In this document: positions 52,293 through 62,778 of the stretch, in pieces
Position numbering within the stretch: the stretch's first letter is position 1
Layout: the number at the start of each line of letters is the position of its first letter
DNA from: Oligoflexia bacterium
GTDB taxonomy: Bacteria; Bdellovibrionota; UBA1018
DNA: 64,000 nt
Assembly (NCBI GenBank): GCA_963758495.1
Contig: CAVWVI010000003.1
Location: 1,344,001 to 1,408,000, forward strand
Direction: 5' to 3'
Position numbers and translations under genes: made by a program
Notes under the pieces: generated by a model
Database searches by the model: none
What the model saw: the letters and a program-made list of their open reading frames with translations, nothing else
What the model was told of the DNA's origin: nothing

Positions 52293-52369
52293 GGTCGCCA
52301 CGGCGAACGCCGTTCAACTTGAGTTAAAGTTGACATTTTCATGCGTTAAGAGGAAAAATTCTCAAACTT

Positions 52370-52948
52370 ATGAAAAAATCAACACTCGTACTTTTAGGTC
52401 TCATTACTCTTATTCTAATTTCGCTTAGCTGGGGGGTTTCAACCTCTAATCGACTCGTCACTCTAGATGAAGGCGTTAAAGAAAAGTGGTCGCAGGTTGA
52501 AAATGTTTATCAACGCCGTCTGGATTTAATTCCAAATCTGGTAAATACCGTCAAAGGTTATGCCAAACACGAGGCTCAGGTTTTTGAAGAAGTCACTCGG
52601 GCGAGATCCCAAGCGGGACAAGTTCGGGTCAATAACGTGGATGATTTGAAGAAATTTGATCAAGCACAGGCACAACTCAGTGGAGCTCTTTCTCGTCTCC
52701 TTGTCGTAGCGGAAAATTATCCACAACTTAAAGCAGACCAAAATTTTCTAGAACTTCAATCCCAACTTGAAGGCACTGAGAATCGCATCACCGTAGAACG
52801 AATGCGCTTCAACGAGTCCGCACGTGAATACAATACTTACCTTCGCCGTTTCCCTGAGTCCATAGTTGCAAACTTTAGAGGATTTCACGAACGACCCTAT
52901 TTTCAAGCAGACGTAACTGCGAAAACTGCACCCAAGGTTGAATTTTGA
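52370..52948 (+). CDS. lemA: LemA family protein
   Basis: QRRLDLIPNLVNTVKGYA, ENYPQLKA, LEGTENRI. Confidence 0.95.
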   Translation: MKKSTLVLLGLITLILISLSWGVSTSNRLVTLDEGVKEKWSQVENVYQRRLDLIPNLVNTVKGYAKHEAQVFEEVTRARSQAGQVRVNNVDDLKKFDQAQAQLSGALSRLLVVAENYPQLKADQNFLELQSQLEGTENRITVERMRFNESAREYNTYLRRFPESIVANFRGFHERPYFQADVTAKTAPKVEF

Positions 52949-53802
52949 TGCAAGCACTGAGAGTATGGCTGATTGTATTGGCTCTAGCGTCTACTTCTAT
53001 TGTTTATGCTGAACCACCTCCCCTGCCAGCGCCTCCCACCTCTTATGTTTTAGATGAACCGGGTGTCCTCGATGCAAAAACGCTCGGTTCTCTCCAAGCC
53101 CTTCTCAGCAGGCAAGATAGCGTCACTGGCGAGCAGGTGGTTTTTGCTATTTTTAAAACACTTTCTCATCAAGATTTGGTGACTTGGACCAACCAAGTTT
53201 TTCAACACTGGAAGATAGGTCAAAAAGGAAAAGACAACGGGGTACTTCTCGCATTGTATTGGCAAGATCACAAAGCGAGAATTGAAGTTGGGTATGGACT
53301 TGAATCCCGTTTAACAGACGCAAAATCGAAGTGGATCATCAACGAATATCTTATCCCTGAATTAAAAAGCAACCATCCCAATGCTGCACTCACTCTCACG
53401 GCAATTCAAATTCTTAAAACTCTCAACAGTCCCTTAATTCAAAACGGAGAAGCTGAGAAAATTTTGCAACAGGGTGGAAATCCTGTTCATCTTACAAACA
53501 CGCCATTGACATCTGCTCATCCCCTCGTTTGGTGGCTCTTAGGGTTTATCCTTTTCTTTCTCTTCTTTAGAATATTCTTCGTTGGCGATTCTCACTTCAC
53601 TCGTGGAAATGAAGAGGGGAGCCACAACTCCTGGACTGGAAAAAACCGTCGCTTTCGAAATAGAAGTAGATGGTGGTGGGGCGGCGGGGGTGGGGGCTTC
53701 GGCGGTGGGGGCTGGGGCGGCGGAGATGGTAATGGGGGTGGGGGTGGCTTTAGTGGAGGCGGCGGCTCTTCTGGTGGTGGCGGTGCCAGTGGCGATTGGT
53801 AG
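52948..53802 (+). CDS. TPM-domain (YgcG-like) membrane protein with Gly-rich tail
   Basis: WKIGQKGKDNGVLL, RIEVGYGLE..LTD, GGG.SGGGGASG.W. Confidence 0.9.
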   Translation: MQALRVWLIVLALASTSIVYAEPPPLPAPPTSYVLDEPGVLDAKTLGSLQALLSRQDSVTGEQVVFAIFKTLSHQDLVTWTNQVFQHWKIGQKGKDNGVLLALYWQDHKARIEVGYGLESRLTDAKSKWIINEYLIPELKSNHPNAALTLTAIQILKTLNSPLIQNGEAEKILQQGGNPVHLTNTPLTSAHPLVWWLLGFILFFLFFRIFFVGDSHFTRGNEEGSHNSWTGKNRRFRNRSRWWWGGGGGGFGGGGWGGGDGNGGGGGFSGGGGSSGGGGASGDW

Positions 53803-53820
53803 AACTGATTTAGCCAAAGG

Positions 53821-55293
53821 TTATTTGGTCAAAGGGAGTTGAATTACAAATCGGGTATTCGGGCTATCTACATCCTCAAACAAAGATCCTCCATGCGAAT
53901 CAATAATTCCCTTGGCGATACTGAGGCCCAAACCGATTCCGCTTCCAATTTCTTTAGTAGTGAAAAATGGATTGAATATGCTATCTCGAAAAACTTCAGG
54001 AATACCATTTCCAGAATCAGTCACAGAGATTTCAACATGTTCATTCCGGTTATAAACATCGATTCTGACCCACTTTTCATTTGACTTGGGTGACTCGGGT
54101 GACTCGCGTGACTGAAGCGATTCAGGCAACTCAGAAACAGCATCAAAAGAGTTATTGAGCAAATTCAGGATTGCTTGCTCAATCTCGACAAATCGGCATT
54201 TCAGCTCAACTGAATCCACTTGAGAACAGATTAACTTCACATTGCCTTTTTGATACCGCCGCTCACACAGAGCTATTGTATCTTTTATAATTTGTTTAAT
54301 ATTGACCTTGATGGGAGGGGTCTTTACAGTGTTCGGAGAAGAAAAAGTAAGTATCCCACTAATGATAGTGGCCATTCTATTGGCTGTCTGAGTAAGACTT
54401 TCTGTCATTTCCTTAACGATAGAAGATTCGACTACTTCTCCCTTCTCAGCCATGATTTGTAACTCTTCCAAGGTTAAAGCGATCACTGTCAACGGAGTAT
54501 TGATCTCATGTGCAATTCCGGCACACACCTTCCCTAATGCCGCCATTTTCTCAGCACGAACCAACTTTTCTTGCTGCTTCTTGAACTGTTGGGTGCGCTC
54601 TTCAACAATAGCCTCAAGCTGATCAAAAAGACCTTTCAAAGAAACCCTCGTTGTTTCAAGCGCCTGCCCCAACTCAGCGATTTCATCACTACCCGACCAA
54701 ATAAAGCTTTGATTCAAAACTCTATCGGCTAGTAATCGAGCATGAAAATGAATGCGCTTTAATCGTGATATAATTCGTATATTTATCAATAATGCTAGAA
54801 TTATAAAACAAATTGTAAGTTGAATTCCAAACTGAAAAAGATGAATAAAAGACGACCAATATATTTTAGACCGATATTTTGCCGAAGAAAATTCAACATG
54901 AACTTTTCCGATATTCATTCCATCATGCATAATCGGCAGCTCTTTGACTAAACTTTCACCACTTCTACGACTCTCACGCACTGTATCCAAGAACGACCTG
55001 TTCTGACTATCAGTGACAGAAACTCTCACGACTCTATCATCTGTCATAATTGCTTCTGATAGCTTCTTAAGCGAGGCTTTATCAAAATTCCACAATGGAA
55101 ATGAGGAAGATATACTTAAAATCTCGGTAATTCTATTATGATCCTGATTGGATTCGTTCTGGAGGCTTTTGCGTGTATAGATGCTTGAAAATATGAAAAC
55201 CAATGCAGTCGGAATAACTAATCCAATAAAAATACCACCCAAAACCACCGATTTGATTCTTAAATTTTTCCATATTAAACTTGGATTAGTCAT
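53821..55293 (-). CDS. Membrane sensor histidine kinase (HAMP-HisKA-HATPase)
   Basis: Two TM helices, DEIAEL HAMP, AHEINTPL, NLLNNSFDA, DSGNGI, FFTTK, GIGLGL. Confidence 0.92.
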   Translation of the reverse strand: MTNPSLIWKNLRIKSVVLGGIFIGLVIPTALVFIFSSIYTRKSLQNESNQDHNRITEILSISSSFPLWNFDKASLKKLSEAIMTDDRVVRVSVTDSQNRSFLDTVRESRRSGESLVKELPIMHDGMNIGKVHVEFSSAKYRSKIYWSSFIHLFQFGIQLTICFIILALLINIRIISRLKRIHFHARLLADRVLNQSFIWSGSDEIAELGQALETTRVSLKGLFDQLEAIVEERTQQFKKQQEKLVRAEKMAALGKVCAGIAHEINTPLTVIALTLEELQIMAEKGEVVESSIVKEMTESLTQTANRMATIISGILTFSSPNTVKTPPIKVNIKQIIKDTIALCERRYQKGNVKLICSQVDSVELKCRFVEIEQAILNLLNNSFDAVSELPESLQSRESPESPKSNEKWVRIDVYNRNEHVEISVTDSGNGIPEVFRDSIFNPFFTTKEIGSGIGLGLSIAKGIIDSHGGSLFEDVDSPNTRFVIQLPLTK

Positions 55294-55308
55294 TTAAAAA
55301 ATACTCAT

Positions 55309-56400
55309 ATGATTAAGAATAATTATACTTTATTTATACAAGTGTATATTAATTTGGTTCGACAAACTTCAAAATATTTTCAATTGAAAGTATTCGTTTA
55401 CCTTATTTTGAGCGCAAGCCCATGTTTTGCCCAAGACTTAACGTGGCTCGGGCCTAGCGATGGACCAAGAGCAGAAACCAAAAAAAGAATTACTTTTATT
55501 GGGTCTGACTTAAAAAATGGAGGAATCGCGGCAGTTTATCGCTCCTTTGAAACTGCCGCCAATAAAGTCGATTGGAGCGTGGCTACCTTTGATGGAGAAG
55601 GAAACTTAGAAACTCTTAAAAAACAAATGATTGTTGCGATAAAATCACACCCTGATGGAATGGTCGTTGCCGGACTCCCTGAGGAATGCATGACAGATTT
55701 GTCGACATGGATCAGACATTCGCAAATTGCTCTGGTGGGCTGGCATTCGGCGGCAAAAGCTGGACTCTACCACAAGCTCTATGTAAATGTATCCACCGAC
55801 CCCATCGAAGTAGCCAAAATCGCCACCGACTACGTCATCCAACATACGAATGGGCCAGTAGGTGTCGTCATTTTCAATGATAGTAGCTTCGCAGTGGCGA
55901 ACGCCAAGACAAAATGGATGATCGAGGCACTTGCAAAATGTAACCGTTGCAAAATTTTAGCAGTAGAGGACCTTTCAATTTCTAGTGTGGAAAAAGATAT
56001 TCCTGAAGCCGTGATTCGTCTAAACAAAAAATTTGGTCATACTTGGACTCACAATTTAGCAATTAATGATGCTTATTTTGACAGCATGAATTTTTCTCTC
56101 TCCAACATTGGAAGAACTGATATCGAAAATATCTCTGCTGGAGACGGCTCAAACAAAGCATTGAGTCGTATCAAATCCGGCTCGTCCCAACAAGTTGCAA
56201 CAGTAGCGGAACCTTTGAAAATCCAAGGATGGCAACTCGTAGATGAGCTCAATCGTCTTTTTTCAGGAGCACAGCCCAGCGGGTTTGTTACGAAGCCCCT
56301 GCTGATTACTTCCCCAATATTGGAGCAAATGGGAGACAAAGACATTGATTTGATACTCGGGGATTATAAAAAGGCATATTTATCGATATGGAAGAAATAG
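55309..56400 (+). CDS. Periplasmic binding protein type 1 (sugar-binding/LacI-like fold)
   Basis: Signal-like segment ending PCFA; AINDAYFD, SAGDGS, ATVAEPL..GWQLVDELNR; true start probably downstream of 55309. Confidence 0.8.
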   Translation: MIKNNYTLFIQVYINLVRQTSKYFQLKVFVYLILSASPCFAQDLTWLGPSDGPRAETKKRITFIGSDLKNGGIAAVYRSFETAANKVDWSVATFDGEGNLETLKKQMIVAIKSHPDGMVVAGLPEECMTDLSTWIRHSQIALVGWHSAAKAGLYHKLYVNVSTDPIEVAKIATDYVIQHTNGPVGVVIFNDSSFAVANAKTKWMIEALAKCNRCKILAVEDLSISSVEKDIPEAVIRLNKKFGHTWTHNLAINDAYFDSMNFSLSNIGRTDIENISAGDGSNKALSRIKSGSSQQVATVAEPLKIQGWQLVDELNRLFSGAQPSGFVTKPLLITSPILEQMGDKDIDLILGDYKKAYLSIWKK

Positions 56401-56471
56401 CTTTATGCGAGGAGCGATTACAGAAAGAGTAATGAATAGGGGCAGACTATGCTAACCTTAAGTGATAGAAG

Positions 56472-56771
56472 TCAGGCATGAGACTTGGGTGCAAGATCTC
56501 GGTGCTTGTGTGATATCAATACTGTTCTACCTTCTATGCTCGAATCTGGCATGAGAGCTATCTGGAATCCGTCAACTGATTGGATCTCTTGGAGCCCGTC
56601 CACATGCATTTTTTTTAGTTTAAATGGATCTTTAGTCTTTACTTTAGCTCGAGCCTCTTCAAAATTTTCAGCCGCAACAAAAAAATTTACGTGAGATTCG
56701 TAAATGCCATCACCGATTTCAGAATCATAATAACCACAATGCACAAGAAATAATTTCATTAAAATACCCAT
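56472..56771 (-). CDS. DUF1543-like small protein
   Basis: KLFLVHCGYY..YESH..FFVAA..EAR..K..MHVD..EI..VDG. Confidence 0.7.
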   Translation of the reverse strand: MGILMKLFLVHCGYYDSEIGDGIYESHVNFFVAAENFEEARAKVKTKDPFKLKKMHVDGLQEIQSVDGFQIALMPDSSIEGRTVLISHKHRDLAPKSHA

Positions 56772-56780
56772 TTTTAAATA

Positions 56781-58218
56781 CTAGCGTTCAAGATCATACG
56801 TTTTGCGAATCTTACTACCTTTTCCAATTTCAGGCAATCTGGCGTGTAGTTTGAAGACGGATTTCTCAACTGCCACCTTGCACGGATTATTTTGCTGAGA
56901 ATCAAAGTAATTTTTGAGTGCTACCTGCATCTGAAGTGAATAATCTAGAGCTACATCTCCCGCGCTAGGAGCCTGGTATTCACAATTTTTTGGGTCAATA
57001 CTACCAAATGGGGTAATCCCTTGTAAATTCCGAAACCAATTCATCTTTTGTTTATCTGAACACTGAATACTACCACCCGACCCTATCATTGGAGCAACAA
57101 TGGGATATTGTGCAGTTGAATGACAGCTTAAACAAGATGATGCTGGATTATCTACTGGGCCATTTAATCTTTTGCCCCAACCAAGATGCACTAACGCATA
57201 CGTTGGCGCCAGAGGACTAATATAGCTTTCAACAGGACGTGCTCCCGTAGTAAATTTTTCAAGCGTAAGTGTTGGATCGTTGCCCCACATCAAACCAACA
57301 AGTTTCATTTTATACCAGGGGATTATCTGACTGCTTTTTGAAATCATAAGCAAATGTTCCAAATACCCAACCTGTTTCTTCTGCTCTTTTGCTACGGATA
57401 GCAAAATCGATTTGTAGTACTCGAAGCTGCTGAATAGATTTCAGTCCATTGCTTCTATTAACTACAAAGCCGGATACCCTAGGAGAATCTGCTAAAATAT
57501 CAGGCCCATCAAACTCCTCTGATCTAGCGTCAGTGAGTAATAGTTTAACAACTGCAGAACCCTCAGGTAATTGACTCTTAGAAAGATCAGGTAAATCACC
57601 CCTCCAAATTTGCCCAATTGAATAGGCCGCTGTAGCATTATAATAGCCTACCGCGTAGTTATTTACAGAAGCACCCTTTCTAAGGCCTAACTCAGGCCCA
57701 ATAATGGGTCGTTCATCTGTCAGACCATGAACAAACTCTCGAGGGTGCTTTCCTGTTGTCATCCACGGAATATGGAACCATTTATGTTTAGAGTTAGCTT
57801 CCGCATACCAATCTGATTTAATCATGCCGTCGTATACGTACTTTAAAAATGAATCAGCATAGCGCTCCGCTTCATTATTTTTTTTGAAGTCAAACTCATC
57901 CCAAGGATACTTTTCATGAACTGCAGATGACGGATAATTCTGAGATAAAATAAACCGCGATCCAGAATAATTTTCTTGCACCTCAGATACAAAGTCAGGA
58001 TAGCGACCCGAACATTGAGCGACAAATTTGCCAGTCGAATTCGGCTTTCCATATGCATCCACTCGAAGGCAAATGGCGTCTTTTGAACATCGAAGGGAAG
58101 CAGGTTCAGGCAATGGAGATGACGTTCCAGTAGCGCTACAAGTTCGAGTAACGATGACATTTAAAATTAGACAGTTAAAAAGCAGAAGAAATAAAAAATA
58201 TTTATATATTATCTTCAC
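56781..58218 (-). pseudogene. Exported c-type cytochrome-like protein split by a 1-bp frame break (ORFs 57310..58218 and 56781..57404)
   Basis: Removing one base from the C4 run (57318-57321) gives SDNPWYKMKLVGLMWGNDP and one 478-aa ORF with signal peptide and CLSCH haem motif. Confidence 0.75.
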
Positions 58219-58343
58219 CGTAGTTCAATCCTACAGTGATTCATTTACTATAAAAATTAAAATTATAAAAATAATAGAAAATCATATGTCGGATACTACT
58301 TAAATTCAGTCTGATTAGTGCCTACAAAGATTTTTAAATGTAA

Positions 58344-58414
58344 ACTGTTCTAACTTCTATTCCTCGAATCTGGCATGAGAGATATCTAGAATGCGTCATC
58401 CGCTTGGATCCCTT
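58344..58414. repeat. Degenerate ~70-bp direct copy of 56521-56590 (internal DUF1543-like gene fragment)
   Basis: Shared actgttcta.cttctat..ctcgaatctggcatgagag.tatct.gaat.cgtca...ttggatc.ctt. Confidence 0.8.
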
Positions 58415-58624
58415 CCAGGCGGCACAATGGGTGAATGGTGACTTTGACGCAATAAAATCACATTAAAAATTTAAATCTTTCTAATAACAAATATTAATAC
58501 CTAAAGGGTCATCAAGCTGCTTATTTAATATAACTAACTGAAAGTACAGTGTTTTATTTTTTTTACTTGAGCATGGATATTGCTTTATAGCACCCTATAA
58601 ACGGACACAGGAGCCCAACCAATT

Positions 58625-59281
58625 ATGATAAATGCCACTCAAACAGTTTCATTCAAAAAAATATTTTCTCAATCAATCTGTCTACCGAGAATTCAAACTG
58701 ATCACCTCGATTTAGAGGAACTAACGGACGAAGAAGCTAGCTGTTTCTTTAGACGTGAGAATATAAATACGCTTACTAAATCAGTGATGTGGGAAACTCA
58801 CGTAAATACCCAAGAATCATTGAATTATATTCAAGAGCTTCGAAAAGTGGATCCACTCGAAAAGGATCAACTTTTTCTTTGCTGGGGAGTAAAAGAGAAG
58901 GGAAGTTCTTCTCTGATTGGATCTGTAAATTTAACTCAAATTGGGCCTATTTGTGCTCAAATTGGCTTTGTTTTTCATCATGACTGGTGGACCCGAAGCC
59001 TGCCAGTTGAAGCATTGCGAGCAATCCTTAATTGGAGCTTTTCAGAGTATCCTTCATTTGAACGAGTTCAAGCAACATGTTTGCCTAGTAGCGTCGATTC
59101 AACATCCCTACTCGAACGAACGGGCATGACCTGTGAAGGGACAAATCGAGCCATGATGAAGATTCAAGACAAAATCGTTGACTTCAACTGTTACGCTATG
59201 ACTCGGAAACAATGGCAAAATATGACTTCCTCTTCAGGAGCATGGACTCTATTTCAACACCAAATGGAAGGGCATATTTAG
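58625..59281 (+). CDS. GNAT N-acetyltransferase, RimJ/RimL family
   Basis: IQTDHLDL, LIGSVNL, AQIGF, RVQA, S..LLERTGM..EG; AGGAG RBS. Confidence 0.85.
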   Translation: MINATQTVSFKKIFSQSICLPRIQTDHLDLEELTDEEASCFFRRENINTLTKSVMWETHVNTQESLNYIQELRKVDPLEKDQLFLCWGVKEKGSSSLIGSVNLTQIGPICAQIGFVFHHDWWTRSLPVEALRAILNWSFSEYPSFERVQATCLPSSVDSTSLLERTGMTCEGTNRAMMKIQDKIVDFNCYAMTRKQWQNMTSSSGAWTLFQHQMEGHI

Positions 59282-59415
59282 AAAACCCGCACACTCATTG
59301 AGCTGCCGAATGAATGAAGCTCGCAGGCTACCTTATAGGAAGGTAGCTTCGTTATGTCAGAATTTTTGAAGGCAACAACCCCCACCACCTTACTTAATAA
59401 GAGAATCCGTTTTTT

Positions 59416-59644
59416 AACTTGAGGTCACAGTCCGTGATCTCAAGTTTTCTTTTGGTTTCAATAAGTTATTATACTTTCCCAATCTTGAGGTCACAGATTG
59501 TGACCTCAAGATTACCCTTAACTTTAATTACTTAGTACGCTTCTCAAACTTGAGATCACAATCTGTGATCTCAAGTTTGCCTTTAATTTTAATTAGTTAG
59601 TTCGTTTTTTCAAACTTGAGATCACAGATTGTGATCTCAAGTTT
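59416..59644. repeat. Array of four 27-bp palindromes CTTGAG(G/A)TCACA-nnn-(T/C)GTGA(C/T)CTCAAG, period 65-66 bp
   Basis: Cores start at 59418, 59484, 59549, 59615; AT-rich 38-39-bp linkers resemble each other. Confidence 0.95.
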
Positions 59645-59652
59645 TGCCAAAC

Positions 59653-60585
59653 CTAAAGTGCGAAGAGTAACTTCTGGATTATTTCCACAGTTTCGCAGAC
59701 TGAATTATCCCTCTCAATCGCAGTAGCAATCTTATTATAGGCGTGCATGACAGTGCTATGATCCTTCCCTCCAAAGGACTTTCCAATTTCCTTAAAGCCA
59801 ATACCAGTGTGTTTTCGAACAAGATAGATAGCAATCTGTCGCGGAAGTACAACCTCTCGCACGCGAGAGGGCGCTTTTAAGTCTTGGACTCGCAATCCAA
59901 AATATTTGGCTACAGTCTGATGAATTGAATTGATTTTAGAGTGAACTTTTTTCCCATGAATAAGGTCACCCATTTCTTTTGCTTTAAGTTTATCATTTGA
60001 ACCAAATGCATCTTGTTCTTGAGGATGACTAAACCTGTCATCAACATCAACAGTCGTTGGTTTGTGCAGAACCGATAATGCAGGTGCATTATTAGACGAT
60101 TTCTCCATTAAGAGTTGTTGGATTCCACTCAGTATCATTTTGAATTGACCATCCTGCTTTTGCTCAAGTTGCTCCAATCTGGTCTCAATTTCATCTAATT
60201 TCTCTCTTGATTCGATACCTATACCAGACAGTTGTCGAACTTCTGCAAAAGAGCGCATGATCGCAATATTCACCTGAACTGCTCGACCATTATCAAGAAC
60301 GCTCGAAAGCATTGCAACTCCATGCTCAGTGAATGCATAAGGAACAAAGCGGCGTCCTCCATGCTTTAAACTAGATGACACAATATGTATTTCTAGATCT
60401 TTGCTTTCCTCTAGGGTCAACTTAAACATGAAATCAGGAGGAAATCGGTCGCGGTTTCGTTGAACTGCTTGGTTCAGTACCCTAGTCTGAGTTTGGTAAA
60501 ACTCAGCTAGATCATTATCTAAAACCACTTTATGTCCTCGAACCGCATAAATTCGCCGTTTAATTTCACTAACGGATAACTCCAT
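59653..60585 (-). CDS. ORF6N-domain protein fused to DnaA domain IV (Bac_DnaA_C)
   Basis: N-term RGHKVVLDNDLAEFY..T..LNQAVQRN..RFP.DFMF.L, GGRR..PYAFTEHGVAMLSSVL; C-term V.PRQIAIYL.R..T..F.EIG..FGGKDHSTVMHA; ATG 60585 after GAGGG. Confidence 0.9.
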   Translation of the reverse strand: MELSVSEIKRRIYAVRGHKVVLDNDLAEFYQTQTRVLNQAVQRNRDRFPPDFMFKLTLEESKDLEIHIVSSSLKHGGRRFVPYAFTEHGVAMLSSVLDNGRAVQVNIAIMRSFAEVRQLSGIGIESREKLDEIETRLEQLEQKQDGQFKMILSGIQQLLMEKSSNNAPALSVLHKPTTVDVDDRFSHPQEQDAFGSNDKLKAKEMGDLIHGKKVHSKINSIHQTVAKYFGLRVQDLKAPSRVREVVLPRQIAIYLVRKHTGIGFKEIGKSFGGKDHSTVMHAYNKIATAIERDNSVCETVEIIQKLLFAL

Positions 60586-60705
60586 TTTTAATCCCTCAAA
60601 GCGCAATGAAATGCCACATCGACTTGCAGTAGTCTAGTTATTTCAAACCACATTTATTTTGCCATCAAAATCACTTAAGAGAATACTTGTAGTTCCAGAT
60701 AGTCC

Positions 60706-60811
60706 ATTTTTGCGGTCACATTTTGTGACCACAAAAATACAATAATCCATTTATCAGCCTAAAATTAATGAAAATATCAACATTTTGTGGTCACAAAATG
60801 CGACCGCAAAA
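60706..60811. promoter_or_regulatory. Two further palindromes of the same family upstream of the ORF6N gene, inverted relative to each other
   Basis: tttgcggtcacattttgtgaccacaaa (60709-60735) and tttgtggtcacaaaatgcgaccgcaaa (60784-60810). Confidence 0.85.
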
Positions 60812-60977
60812 ACTAAGTGAAAAAATTCTTAACTTAAATTAACTCAAAATTACTCGACATAGACTAGCACTTGATAGAATGCTTCAAATCGGTGTAGTGC
60901 TTATAATTTAAATACAACCGTATCGTCGAATCACTCAAATAAAATGATTAAATTTTTGAGAATAGAAGGCAGATAAA

Positions 60978-61886
60978 ATGCATCAAAAAGCAAAGCCATC
61001 TCCTTGGCATTCACTCTCTCTTTCTATTGTTGCGCACCTTCTCGTTTTATTGATCGCTATGTTTCTAATCCGGATTCCACCTCCTCAAGATAAATATATT
61101 CCATCCATTCAAGTTGAACTGATAGAAAATAAGTCTCACGAAAAATCATCATCAAACGGAAAAAAAGACCACCCTTTAACAAATCAAAGCTCAACTACAG
61201 CTCACACTCAACAGAATGGACACAAAAAACATGTTTCAATCAAAGACCTTGGCATTCATATTCATGGTTTGAAAAAAGAAAAGAACGAAGGAGAGGGTAA
61301 TCCAAGCGATCTATTAGATGGAACTGGTTTTCAAGCCGGTAATAGCTACAAATCCGCAACTGATAAAAACGTCACTCTCTACCATTACATTTATCAAGCC
61401 ATTGATAATAATCTCACTTACCCCTCAGAGTTCATCGACGCGAAGTTTCAAGGAACAGTGGTCACTCAGATCTATTTTGATCAAACCGGGGCGTATCTGC
61501 GCTCCAACTCCAAGTTCCAGTCTCCGCATCCTTACCTTAAAATTCATGTGATTAGAACTCTTCGAAAGGGGCTCGTTAACGCCGTCCCTGAAGCGATTAA
61601 TAAAATCCGAAAACCTTTTTTTCTAAACTGCTCTTTCCGCTTTTATTTCACTGAGAACGGTAACCAGGATCTGGTCAAATCTCAGAAATTTATCGTTGGA
61701 AATCAGCTATTTTTCTATCGATCCGTCCATAAATCAGCACTAGAGTGGGATCTGGGCCCCCTTCATGGGGTAGGGCCACTCGCAAATTTAAATCTTCTTT
61801 GGTTTTTCGAAAAGGGCCACGACCTTCTGTCAAAAAAAGTTAAATTCAGTCCACTCGAAAAGTATCAGGATGATCCCGAATGGTAA
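60978..61886 (+). CDS. TonB-family energy transducer-like protein
   Basis: N-terminal TM with S-x3-H (SIVAHLL), linker, TonB_C-like YP....KFQGTVVTQIYFDQTG. Confidence 0.7.
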   Translation: MHQKAKPSPWHSLSLSIVAHLLVLLIAMFLIRIPPPQDKYIPSIQVELIENKSHEKSSSNGKKDHPLTNQSSTTAHTQQNGHKKHVSIKDLGIHIHGLKKEKNEGEGNPSDLLDGTGFQAGNSYKSATDKNVTLYHYIYQAIDNNLTYPSEFIDAKFQGTVVTQIYFDQTGAYLRSNSKFQSPHPYLKIHVIRTLRKGLVNAVPEAINKIRKPFFLNCSFRFYFTENGNQDLVKSQKFIVGNQLFFYRSVHKSALEWDLGPLHGVGPLANLNLLWFFEKGHDLLSKKVKFSPLEKYQDDPEW

Positions 61887-61983
61887 GTAGTTCCTTTAGG
61901 GCTGTTGACAAGCACTGCAAGGAGTCCTATTGCGCCGTAAAGATTTGGATTCCCGGCGCAACAGGACTCCTTGCAGTGCTTAC
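61886..61983. mobile_element. Putative MITE/REP-like hairpin element flanked by 11-bp direct repeats
   Basis: 28-bp arms (61910-61937, 61954-61981, one mismatch); cccgaatggta at 61875-61885 and 61984-61994; homologous to 14222-14274. Confidence 0.6.
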
Positions 61984-62029
61984 CCCGAATGGTAGCTTTC
62001 TCAAAAGACTTGAGACTTGGCTTCAACAG

Positions 62030-62434
62030 TCAATCGACGAATAATCGAATCCCCAAAGTGTCGCAAAGAATTCTCATATCACCATCCCTCGACCATAATT
62101 CAGCATTCAGTTTTTTAGCAGTGAGTGCGATTAGAGCATCATTTTGAAGTGACGCAAGATTCGGCCCTTTATGTGTATTCCAAAAAAGCTTACGAATCAA
62201 ATCTGCTGCACTAGACCAATCTTCCTCATCAGGAGGAGCGGCCACAGGGGCTATACTTTTGTTTAAACTCAACTCCCAAGGTGAACCGGGACGCACTCCT
62301 CTACGAAGTTCATGCAGTGTAACAGGTGAAATAATGGGGGCTCGACCTGAAAGAAGAGCATTCCATGTCTTATCATCGATAGCGCCTCTTAAACGACGAA
62401 TGATGATATTCGTATCAATCAAGAGAAAGCTCAT
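62030..62434 (-). CDS. PIN-domain toxin (VapC-like)
   Basis: LIDTNIII, S.VTLHEL..G, NDALIA.TA, LWSRD.D. Confidence 0.88.
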   Translation of the reverse strand: MSFLLIDTNIIIRRLRGAIDDKTWNALLSGRAPIISPVTLHELRRGVRPGSPWELSLNKSIAPVAAPPDEEDWSSAADLIRKLFWNTHKGPNLASLQNDALIALTAKKLNAELWSRDGDMRILCDTLGIRLFVD

Positions 62435-62697
62435 CGAAGGCTTTCTAGGTCAAAATCATTCAAATCAAAGTTTTCTTGTATAGCAGTCATCCACTTATCA
62501 AATTCAGATCGCGCTAATTTCTCTCTCACAAGATCATTTATAATTTCAGACTCTGTCATGCTTGAAGGATAAAGCTCTTTAAGTTCCCGAACTTTCGATC
62601 GTGGAATACGCCCCGAAAATACTTTGGTCTTTGTTTCAGTGGCTGACCTTAATGATTTTCGACCCGCTGGCTTAGTTCGAGCCAATAGTTTTTTCAT
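62431..62697 (-). CDS. Putative antitoxin (RHH-like) of the PIN toxin
   Basis: 88 aa, ATGA overlap with toxin, SEIINDLVRE helix, acidic C-terminus. Confidence 0.7.
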   Translation of the reverse strand: MKKLLARTKPAGRKSLRSATETKTKVFSGRIPRSKVRELKELYPSSMTESEIINDLVREKLARSEFDKWMTAIQENFDLNDFDLESLR

Positions 62698-62735
62698 GTC
62701 TACAATATTACAATACTTGTAGACAAATAATCAAG
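62697..62735 (-). promoter_or_regulatory. TA operon promoter/operator
   Basis: Inverted repeat tgtctacaa-N11-ttgtagaca (62697-62725) overlapping TTGATT-N18-TAATAT on the minus strand. Confidence 0.6.
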
Positions 62736-62778
62736 ACCCTTTATATTGATCTAGAAGTCGCCGATTGAGACGACCACC

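Follow-up and report, generated by a model that had tools for sequence, protein, structure and literature searches.

Introduction

In ParB-parS partition, in single-protein plasmid partition (pSK1 Par) and in viral episome tethers, a protein sits on a repeat array beside its own gene. BstA, encoded by a single gene, has a KilA-N-like domain and inhibits phage DNA replication, and its cognate DNA element, aba, overlaps the gene start; BstA is prophage-borne and without a DnaA domain, and aba has terminal direct repeats (PMC8585504). DnaA-titrating loci affect initiation, as shown by datA, and the sequence-specific binding of DnaA resides in domain IV alone (PMC5835720). A docking study citing E. 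coli data names R399, R407, H434, T436 and D433 as DNA contacts, and R399, D433, H434 and T435 as base contacts (PMC13451751).

Here we describe a chromosomal gene that joins an ORF6N domain to DnaA domain IV and is accompanied by palindromes, a module that by analogy would work most like protein-plus-cis-site systems (BstA-aba, ParB-parS, single-protein tethers). As in partition systems and episome tethers, an array lies beside the gene and could be hitched to other DNA; however, the fusion is chromosomal, has no ParA or CTPase, and its second head is the host initiator's reader. It shares with BstA-aba a single gene, a phage-type DNA-binding domain, a cognate DNA element in or at the gene and a link to replication, whereas its sites are palindromic; no BstA family was among the Pfam, NCBIfam and PADLOC matches of the protein. 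Like datA, it is an accessory locus that could dampen initiation and has IHF-like sites in some spacers, but the locus holds no exact DnaA box and competition would come from a protein instead of from DNA. REP/MITE-like elements likewise form short clustered intergenic palindromes, whereas those of the fusion are confined to ORF6N loci and oriC. In none of these likened systems did we find use of the host initiator's reader or repeated origin-proximal placement, and no published description of an ORF6N-DnaA domain IV fusion or palindrome system was found in a search that was thin on subscription journals.

The fusion gene and its protein

The window, that is the whole stretch of 64,000 nucleotides analysed (C3:1344001-1408000), belongs to a 3.66-Mb genome in five contigs (G000). 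A sequence-only reading had proposed that one of its genes joins an ORF6N domain, a coiled-coil-like linker and DnaA domain IV, with no AAA+ domain. Pfam confirms this composition for the product, P0002 (Table 1), in which it finds ORF6N (E=4e-30) and Bac_DnaA_C (E=1e-27) and neither an AAA+ domain nor any other family; an alternative start at an in-frame TTG (60606) would give 317 residues. With 104.3 bits against the curated cut-off of 27.8 for PF10543, P0002 is an ORF6N member by profile. Three PADLOC PDC-S05 models match it as well, the best at E 7.6e-47, over residues 3-164 only. The protein lacks DnaA domains I-III and cannot be an initiator, because Pfam sees no AAA+ domain III and the TIGR00362 score, 107, lies under the cut-off of 344.

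The AlphaFold2 model (mean pLDDT 82.6, pTM 0.41) predicts a long helix at residues 124-164, likely a coiled coil, followed by a low-confidence stretch, in keeping with the linker first proposed. In the model the tail superposes on residues 374-467 of E. coli DnaA (Z 19.0, rmsd 1.2, 94 residues) and has the basic loop and helix-turn-helix fold of DnaA domain IV (PF08299; PDB 1J1V, 3PVP, 8BTG), with which it shares both fold and box-reading residues. Indeed, the equivalents of R399, R407, D433, H434, T436 and H439 are kept and T435 is replaced by serine, the box-contact equivalents being R241 (R399), D275 (D433), H276 (H434), S277 (T435) and T278 (T436). For the ORF6N part, a whole-protein search gave no fold match above background (Dachshund/Ski, Z 5.6-6.4), and the DNA-binding domain of pSK1 Par (8CSH) was a weak match within background (Z 4.7, rank 42). 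Dimer prediction for P0002 scored 0.30, against a mark of 0.42.

An accessory block between convergent genes that we take, by sequence likeness, to be gcvH and gcvP houses the fusion gene; in a second genome, G043, the block is absent and the matching stretches are 20 bp apart. Two 151-nt records from one public run, which may be the source sample, are identical to 60132-60417, a span that leaves the palindromes outside. The same block holds, at 62030-62697, a gene for a PIN-domain protein preceded by a small ORF, likely a toxin-antitoxin pair.

Table 1. Features of the fusion locus, in window coordinates
Feature	Position	Strand	Details
Accessory block, 10.5 kb, holding the fusion gene	52293..62778	.	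between convergent gcvH and gcvP (names presumed)
Downstream palindrome 1	59416..59446	.	arms 9/11
Three AT-rich spacers, 40-41 bp, alike in register	59444..59615	.	spacer alignment
Downstream palindrome 2	59481..59513	.	arms 11/11
Downstream palindrome 3	59545..59579	.	arms 11/11
Downstream palindrome 4	59612..59644	.	arms 11/11; ends 8 bp beyond stop codon
ORF6N-DnaA domain IV fusion gene (P0002)	59653..60585	-	310 aa; ATG, GAGGGA upstream
DnaA domain IV, residues 216-309 (E. coli 374-467)	59659..59940	-	fold and residue match
Linker, residues 166-195, low-confidence and poorly conserved	60001..60090	-	AlphaFold2 model, alignment
Long helix, residues 124-164 (41 residues), likely coiled coil	60094..60216	-	predicted, AlphaFold2 model
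ORF6N domain (PF10543)	60298..60555	-	PHROG anti-repressors and PADLOC PDC-S05 also match
Decayed in-gene palindrome, seventh copy	60372..60396	-	4/11 arm complementarity; codes loop LEIHIVSSS
Upstream palindrome 5	60706..60738	.	arms 10/11
Upstream palindrome 6	60783..60811	.	arms 9/11

Palindromes around the window gene

All six palindromes described in the sequence-only reading, four past the stop and two upstream, were found again, whereas their length had to be revised from 27 bp: the core has 25 bp (11+3+11) and the symmetry reaches 29-35 bp, with 2, 0, 0, 0, 1 and 2 arm mismatches. Spacings are 66, 65 and 66 in the downstream array and 75 between the upstream pair. Because the three downstream spacers align in register, we read that array as a tandem duplication of a 65-66-bp unit. 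Intact loop-coding palindromes are usual inside ORF6N genes, and most ORF6N proteins have a loop of the LRSQIVTSS type; here the in-gene copy is decayed and the intact copies lie outside the gene.

The genome scan suggested earlier found the exact motif at these six places alone. A profile scan of G000 gave 15 sites, all within 58 kb around oriC (C3 1403419-1461092), of which six flank the window gene, eight precede a second fusion gene and a single one stands at 1449614. When 75 family genomes were searched with a degenerate pattern, 36 had 1-9 sites, G000 having the maximum, and 39 had none. Together with its absence from 86 loci without ORF6N, this confinement rules out a genome-wide REP and agrees with the earlier view that the motif is tied to ORF6N genes.

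No exact DnaA box (TTWTNCACA) occurs in C3:1402500-1406000; a single relaxed Bdellovibrio-type box, at 59681-59689, is at chance level, and the palindrome half-site is ruled out as a DnaA box, matching at just 2-5 of 9 positions. An IHF-like 13-mer with one mismatch lies in the first downstream spacer region (59456-59468), and the array at the second fusion gene holds two exact IHF-consensus sites. Rfam returned 24 matches at E<=1, mostly miRNA hairpin models and all under the gathering score. At 61900-61983 the window also carries an 84-bp hairpin with 28-bp arms, REP/MITE-like and repeated dozens of times across all five contigs, with another copy about 50 bp ahead of the second palindrome array; as a dispersed repeat it was excluded as a part of the module.

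The palindrome as an ORF6N loop-coding element

The palindrome is the DNA element that codes the variable loop of ordinary ORF6N proteins. Translated in frame, the copies read LRSQSVISS, LRSQIVTSR and similar, which is that loop, and in 134 ORF6N reading frames taken from fetched loci a palindrome of this kind almost always encodes it. In 93 distinct loop 25-mers, picked by position and peptide pattern with decayed loops left out, arm complementarity averaged 10.29/11 against 8.05 after permutation (maximum 8.44 in 5000 permutations). Watson-Crick swaps between the arms occur at positions 3, 5, 6, 8 and 9, and the outer and inner bases are fixed beyond mere pairing.

The element belongs to ORF6N genes generally, with or without DnaA domain IV. 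Extragenic copies accompany 27 of 104 ORF6N-only loci and none of 86 loci (593 kb) lacking ORF6N. Of 30 pairs made up of an in-gene copy and its nearest outside copy, 6 have the same arms where 0.8 would be expected, although one of the pairs (L005) is not truly in-gene and kin among them are not independent. Fusions thus have the N-terminal domain, long helix and loop-coding palindrome of other ORF6N proteins (PF10543; PHROG anti-repressors; PADLOC candidate PDC-S05); they differ in the DnaA domain IV tail, in a loop more often decayed and in mostly lying near oriC. In G000, the in-gene copy has 4/11 complementarity in the window gene and 7/11, partly decayed, in the second. A different 25-bp odd-centred palindrome, in inverted copies at C3:271384 and C4:658004 (L002, L003), gave no score on the ORF6N palindrome profile.

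Distribution of the fusion

The search for further fusions proposed in the earlier reading returned ORF6N and DnaA domain IV together in 113 of 257 retrieved proteins, always in this order, giving a family of at least 113. The equivalents of R399 and R407 are present in 113/113, of H434 in 109, of T436 in 107 and of D433 in 102, counted in proteins found by a profile that itself contains these residues; position 435 is T, S or A in 84, 23 and 6. Judged by these residues, domain IV would have kept its reading of DnaA boxes, as first suggested. Averaged over columns, conservation reaches 0.58-0.65 in ORF6N and 0.55 in domain IV, as against 0.07 in the linker. The palindrome-type loop peptide survives in 32 of 76 parsed fusions (37 unparsed), as against 116 of 133 plain ORF6N proteins (10 unparsed), and several fusions carry two to four in-frame loop units inside the ORF6N domain (P0011, P0022, P0185; L034:3790-3890).

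Named relatives belong to Bdellovibrionia or Bdellovibrionota (P0020; an Atlas cluster of 68 members). Full-length fusions occur in 5 of 127 genomes of the G000 class, all from one family; no other family yielded one among 401 phylum genomes, with at most six candidates scored in each. In the class of G127, reached through L128 (deposited as a Myxococcales MAG), they occur in 5 of 38 genomes. No full-length match was met in 50,697 phage records, 72,556 plasmid records or the 80 viral loci kept, and neither a recombinase nor a transposase consistently accompanies the fusion genes. Copies within one genome are not sisters in a quick tree (LG+G4), with identities of 43% in G000, 36% in G043 and 33-39% in G107.

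The expectation that homologs would carry the same flanking palindromes held in part. Among 17 fusion loci, 14 have a palindrome in cis, flanking or in-gene, but flanking copies occur at just seven (6, 8, 3, 1, 1, 1 and 1 copies, the last locus truncated by the end of its contig), and on both sides of the gene at the window locus only. Seven have in-gene copies alone. At the remaining three no copy passes the threshold; these are G107 beside oriC, where the upstream side is cut off, and G432 and G435, with weak remnants.

Fusion loci and the origin of replication

In G000, 17 DnaA boxes at C3 1449926-1450364, ahead of dnaN, mark oriC, with the GC-skew minimum adjacent (1446657). The oriC of B. 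bacteriovorus is likewise placed before dnaN (PMC5124646). The genome has only two ORF6N matches, namely the window gene, 45 kb from oriC, and a second ORF6N-DnaA domain IV gene (C3 1461185-1462102), which follows the ATP synthase c gene, 57 kb from the first and 11 kb from oriC; the lone palindrome is 0.3 kb away. The dnaA gene of G000 (C3:1441423-1442890, L393), 7 kb from oriC and on the strand opposite to dnaN, is split in two frames between domains III and IV. This break is probably an indel from assembly, given that 4 of 44 core orthologues are split likewise, and we set it aside.

The 17 fusion loci come from two classes and are counted as distinct, with G045 counted together with G043, whose serS site it shares, and most of the genomes are fragmented MAGs. 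Eleven lie within about 51 kb of oriC, four do not and two (G107:C313, G058:C318) are unplaceable; thus 11 of 15 placeable loci are near oriC, positional support for the link to oriC suggested earlier. Six of the eleven distances were measured on one contig (G000, 45 and 11 kb; G043, 0.8 and 50 kb; G107, 0.2 kb; G435, 2.8 kb) and five were inferred from another genome's gene order, with neighbour names read off sequence likeness: G107:C464 between uvrA and atpB, which are at 9-15 kb in G000, L048 at 18-24 kb, G432 at -4 and +27 kb in G435, G431:C11 at +34 kb, and the G444 rplC site at +36 and +37. By the same neighbour test G058:C160, the metK loci of G127 and G444, and G431:C36 are not near oriC; the G444 metK copy lacks 42 residues of domain IV. 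As a control in the same family, none of 14 placeable ORF6N-only loci (from 20) lay within 60 kb of oriC; in the second class, 3 of 39 six-kb background windows had a gene mapping within 40 kb. Fisher p was 5e-5 (7/8 vs 0/14) and 0.006 (4/7 vs 3/39), both overstated since kin are not independent.

In 30 oriC loci, some of them truncated where the contig stops, a palindrome lies beside oriC in G000 and G043 only and an ORF6N gene in G043 and G107 only, in each case on the flank away from dnaN. Beside the G043 origin (L211:2176-2443), a perfect palindrome is followed by a frameshifted relic of DnaA domain IV and then an intact fusion gene; the site may have received copies in succession.

A possible tether to oriC, and other explanations

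The best reading, which we hold tentatively and at somewhat under an even chance, is a two-headed protein that tethers its own palindromes to oriC. The ORF6N head would bind the palindromes and the domain IV tail DnaA boxes, with TTATCCACA and oriC as predicted targets, and the gene's own locus would thereby be tied to the origin. Binding of the palindrome by ORF6N is suggested because nothing else is constant at the loci, and the symmetry and fixed bases would fit a dimer site; the tail would bind oriC because the locus has no exact DnaA box of its own. A dimer joined by the long helix may sit on the palindromes and control its own gene, while the tail, on the 17-box oriC that it would be unable to open, would hence compete with DnaA. 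The link in cis would make copies land, or be kept, near oriC; a bridge would make gene position matter, either because landing is biased or because a cis effect on initiation is selected for. The six-copy bracket of the window gene reflects a local expansion through tandem duplication, likely replacing the decayed in-gene site. As a general rule, such replacement was rejected: it fits three loci and fails at G432 and G435. Since three fusions have no palindrome above threshold and the loop peptide is kept in only part of the family, the local anchor is not always present.

Somewhat doubtful is an origin-homing selfish gene with a captured initiator DNA-reading domain, gripping its own DNA through a codon-embedded palindrome; its oriC tether would lead to repeated landing in the chromosomal region that replicates first and has the highest dosage, and may dampen initiation. 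If a tether is true, accessory genes would have a novel means of choosing their chromosomal address, and DnaA's own reader would have given rise to a novel type of origin-binding factor. The module would also offer a handle on the very common, unstudied ORF6N domain, with a predicted site that has natural symmetric variants and is here free of coding constraint, and a small protein linking palindrome-bearing DNA to oriC could become a tool for origin tethering or initiation control.

The match of three PDC-S05 models to the ORF6N part (E 8e-47) points in another direction, since one PDC-S05 gene lowered plating of T7 and T5 about 1000-fold in E. coli B; the gene tested has a RhuM domain, however, and is not an ORF6N-DnaA domain IV fusion (10.1101/2024.09.26.614923). 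In a defence or dormancy system of the BstA-aba type, the palindromes would be a sink on self-DNA, and infection or stress would free the protein, whose domain IV would block the host oriC or invaders' DnaA-box origins. BstA's action on phage replication and its element at the gene start favour this, as do the patchy distribution of the fusion and the PIN toxin-antitoxin pair in its block. Nevertheless, the repeats marking aba are direct and not palindromic, and a trans-acting blocker needs no nearness to oriC, which leaves such defence an unlikely explanation, albeit one compatible with the tether, as both can coexist. Placement near oriC could also be a historical accident, with no tether: ORF6N would have taken the 3' end of dnaA once, at the dnaA-oriC-dnaN junction, and then made only local hops, the palindromes being operators or duplication-prone sites. 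The fusion domains IV indeed cluster with Bdellovibrionota-type DnaA (92/94, unresolved inside), in a tree whose 100 columns resolve little; fusions are not nested there in their own hosts' DnaA, and there was no sign that domain IV had been captured anew from each host. Moreover, the five first-found second-class genes form one clade of 23 rows (95), the G107 fusion beside oriC occupies dnaA's place in the ancestral gene order used for comparison (PMC5124646), and dnaA still adjoins oriC in 10 of 30 origin loci of the class (L208-L237), none of them from a fusion-bearing genome examined. Yet core gene order round oriC is conserved while unrelated copies (33-43%) sit at ten different sites, and the atp-uvrA site has been occupied twice, by genes 43% identical in opposite orientations. 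Local hopping would have to last across two classes, and the invariant box-reading arginines, as far as residues can tell, imply continued binding; we consider an accident decidedly unlikely.

Nearness to oriC would need no contact at all if the protein were a dosage-coupled regulator, an autorepressed DnaA competitor or transcription factor kept near oriC with a level that follows origin firing, rather like a protein version of datA, which shows that DnaA titration can affect initiation (PMC5835720). Palindromes 120-225 bp upstream of the start, and near -37 in several ORF6N loci, would suit an operator; however, a promoter scan was at chance (4 vs 4.5), the four sites past the stop would need looping, and presence in 5/127 and 5/38 genomes only is unlike a cell-cycle regulator, which makes this quite improbable. 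We consider it very improbable that the palindromes work as nucleic-acid structures or in recombination (terminators, RNA hairpins, integrase targets) instead of as ORF6N sites. Where the GNAT gene and the fusion gene converge, two downstream copies have terminator-like scores (3 found vs 1.1 expected), and the second array has its exact IHF-consensus pair, but IHF enrichment was not significant (3 of 11 spacers within one mismatch; 41 of 500 shuffles equally good). No Rfam family reached its gathering score, fixed outer and inner bases go beyond pairing, and coding-strand arm mismatches (A-C 24 vs G-T 10 in 98 sequences filtered for >=8/11 symmetry) do not favour an mRNA hairpin.

Other DnaA domain IV-like sequences

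Sequences resembling DnaA domain IV also occur outside the fusion family. In G000, a 63-residue ORF at C3:1535789-1535980, 85 kb from oriC and without palindromes, corresponds to the first half of domain IV only (56% to the fusion) and adjoins a small HTH-like gene and a transposase-like pair. Many viral contigs (L289-L368) contain domain IV-like stretches without an ORF6N part, and P0191, a protein of 673 residues, carries five domain IV-like repeats in tandem.
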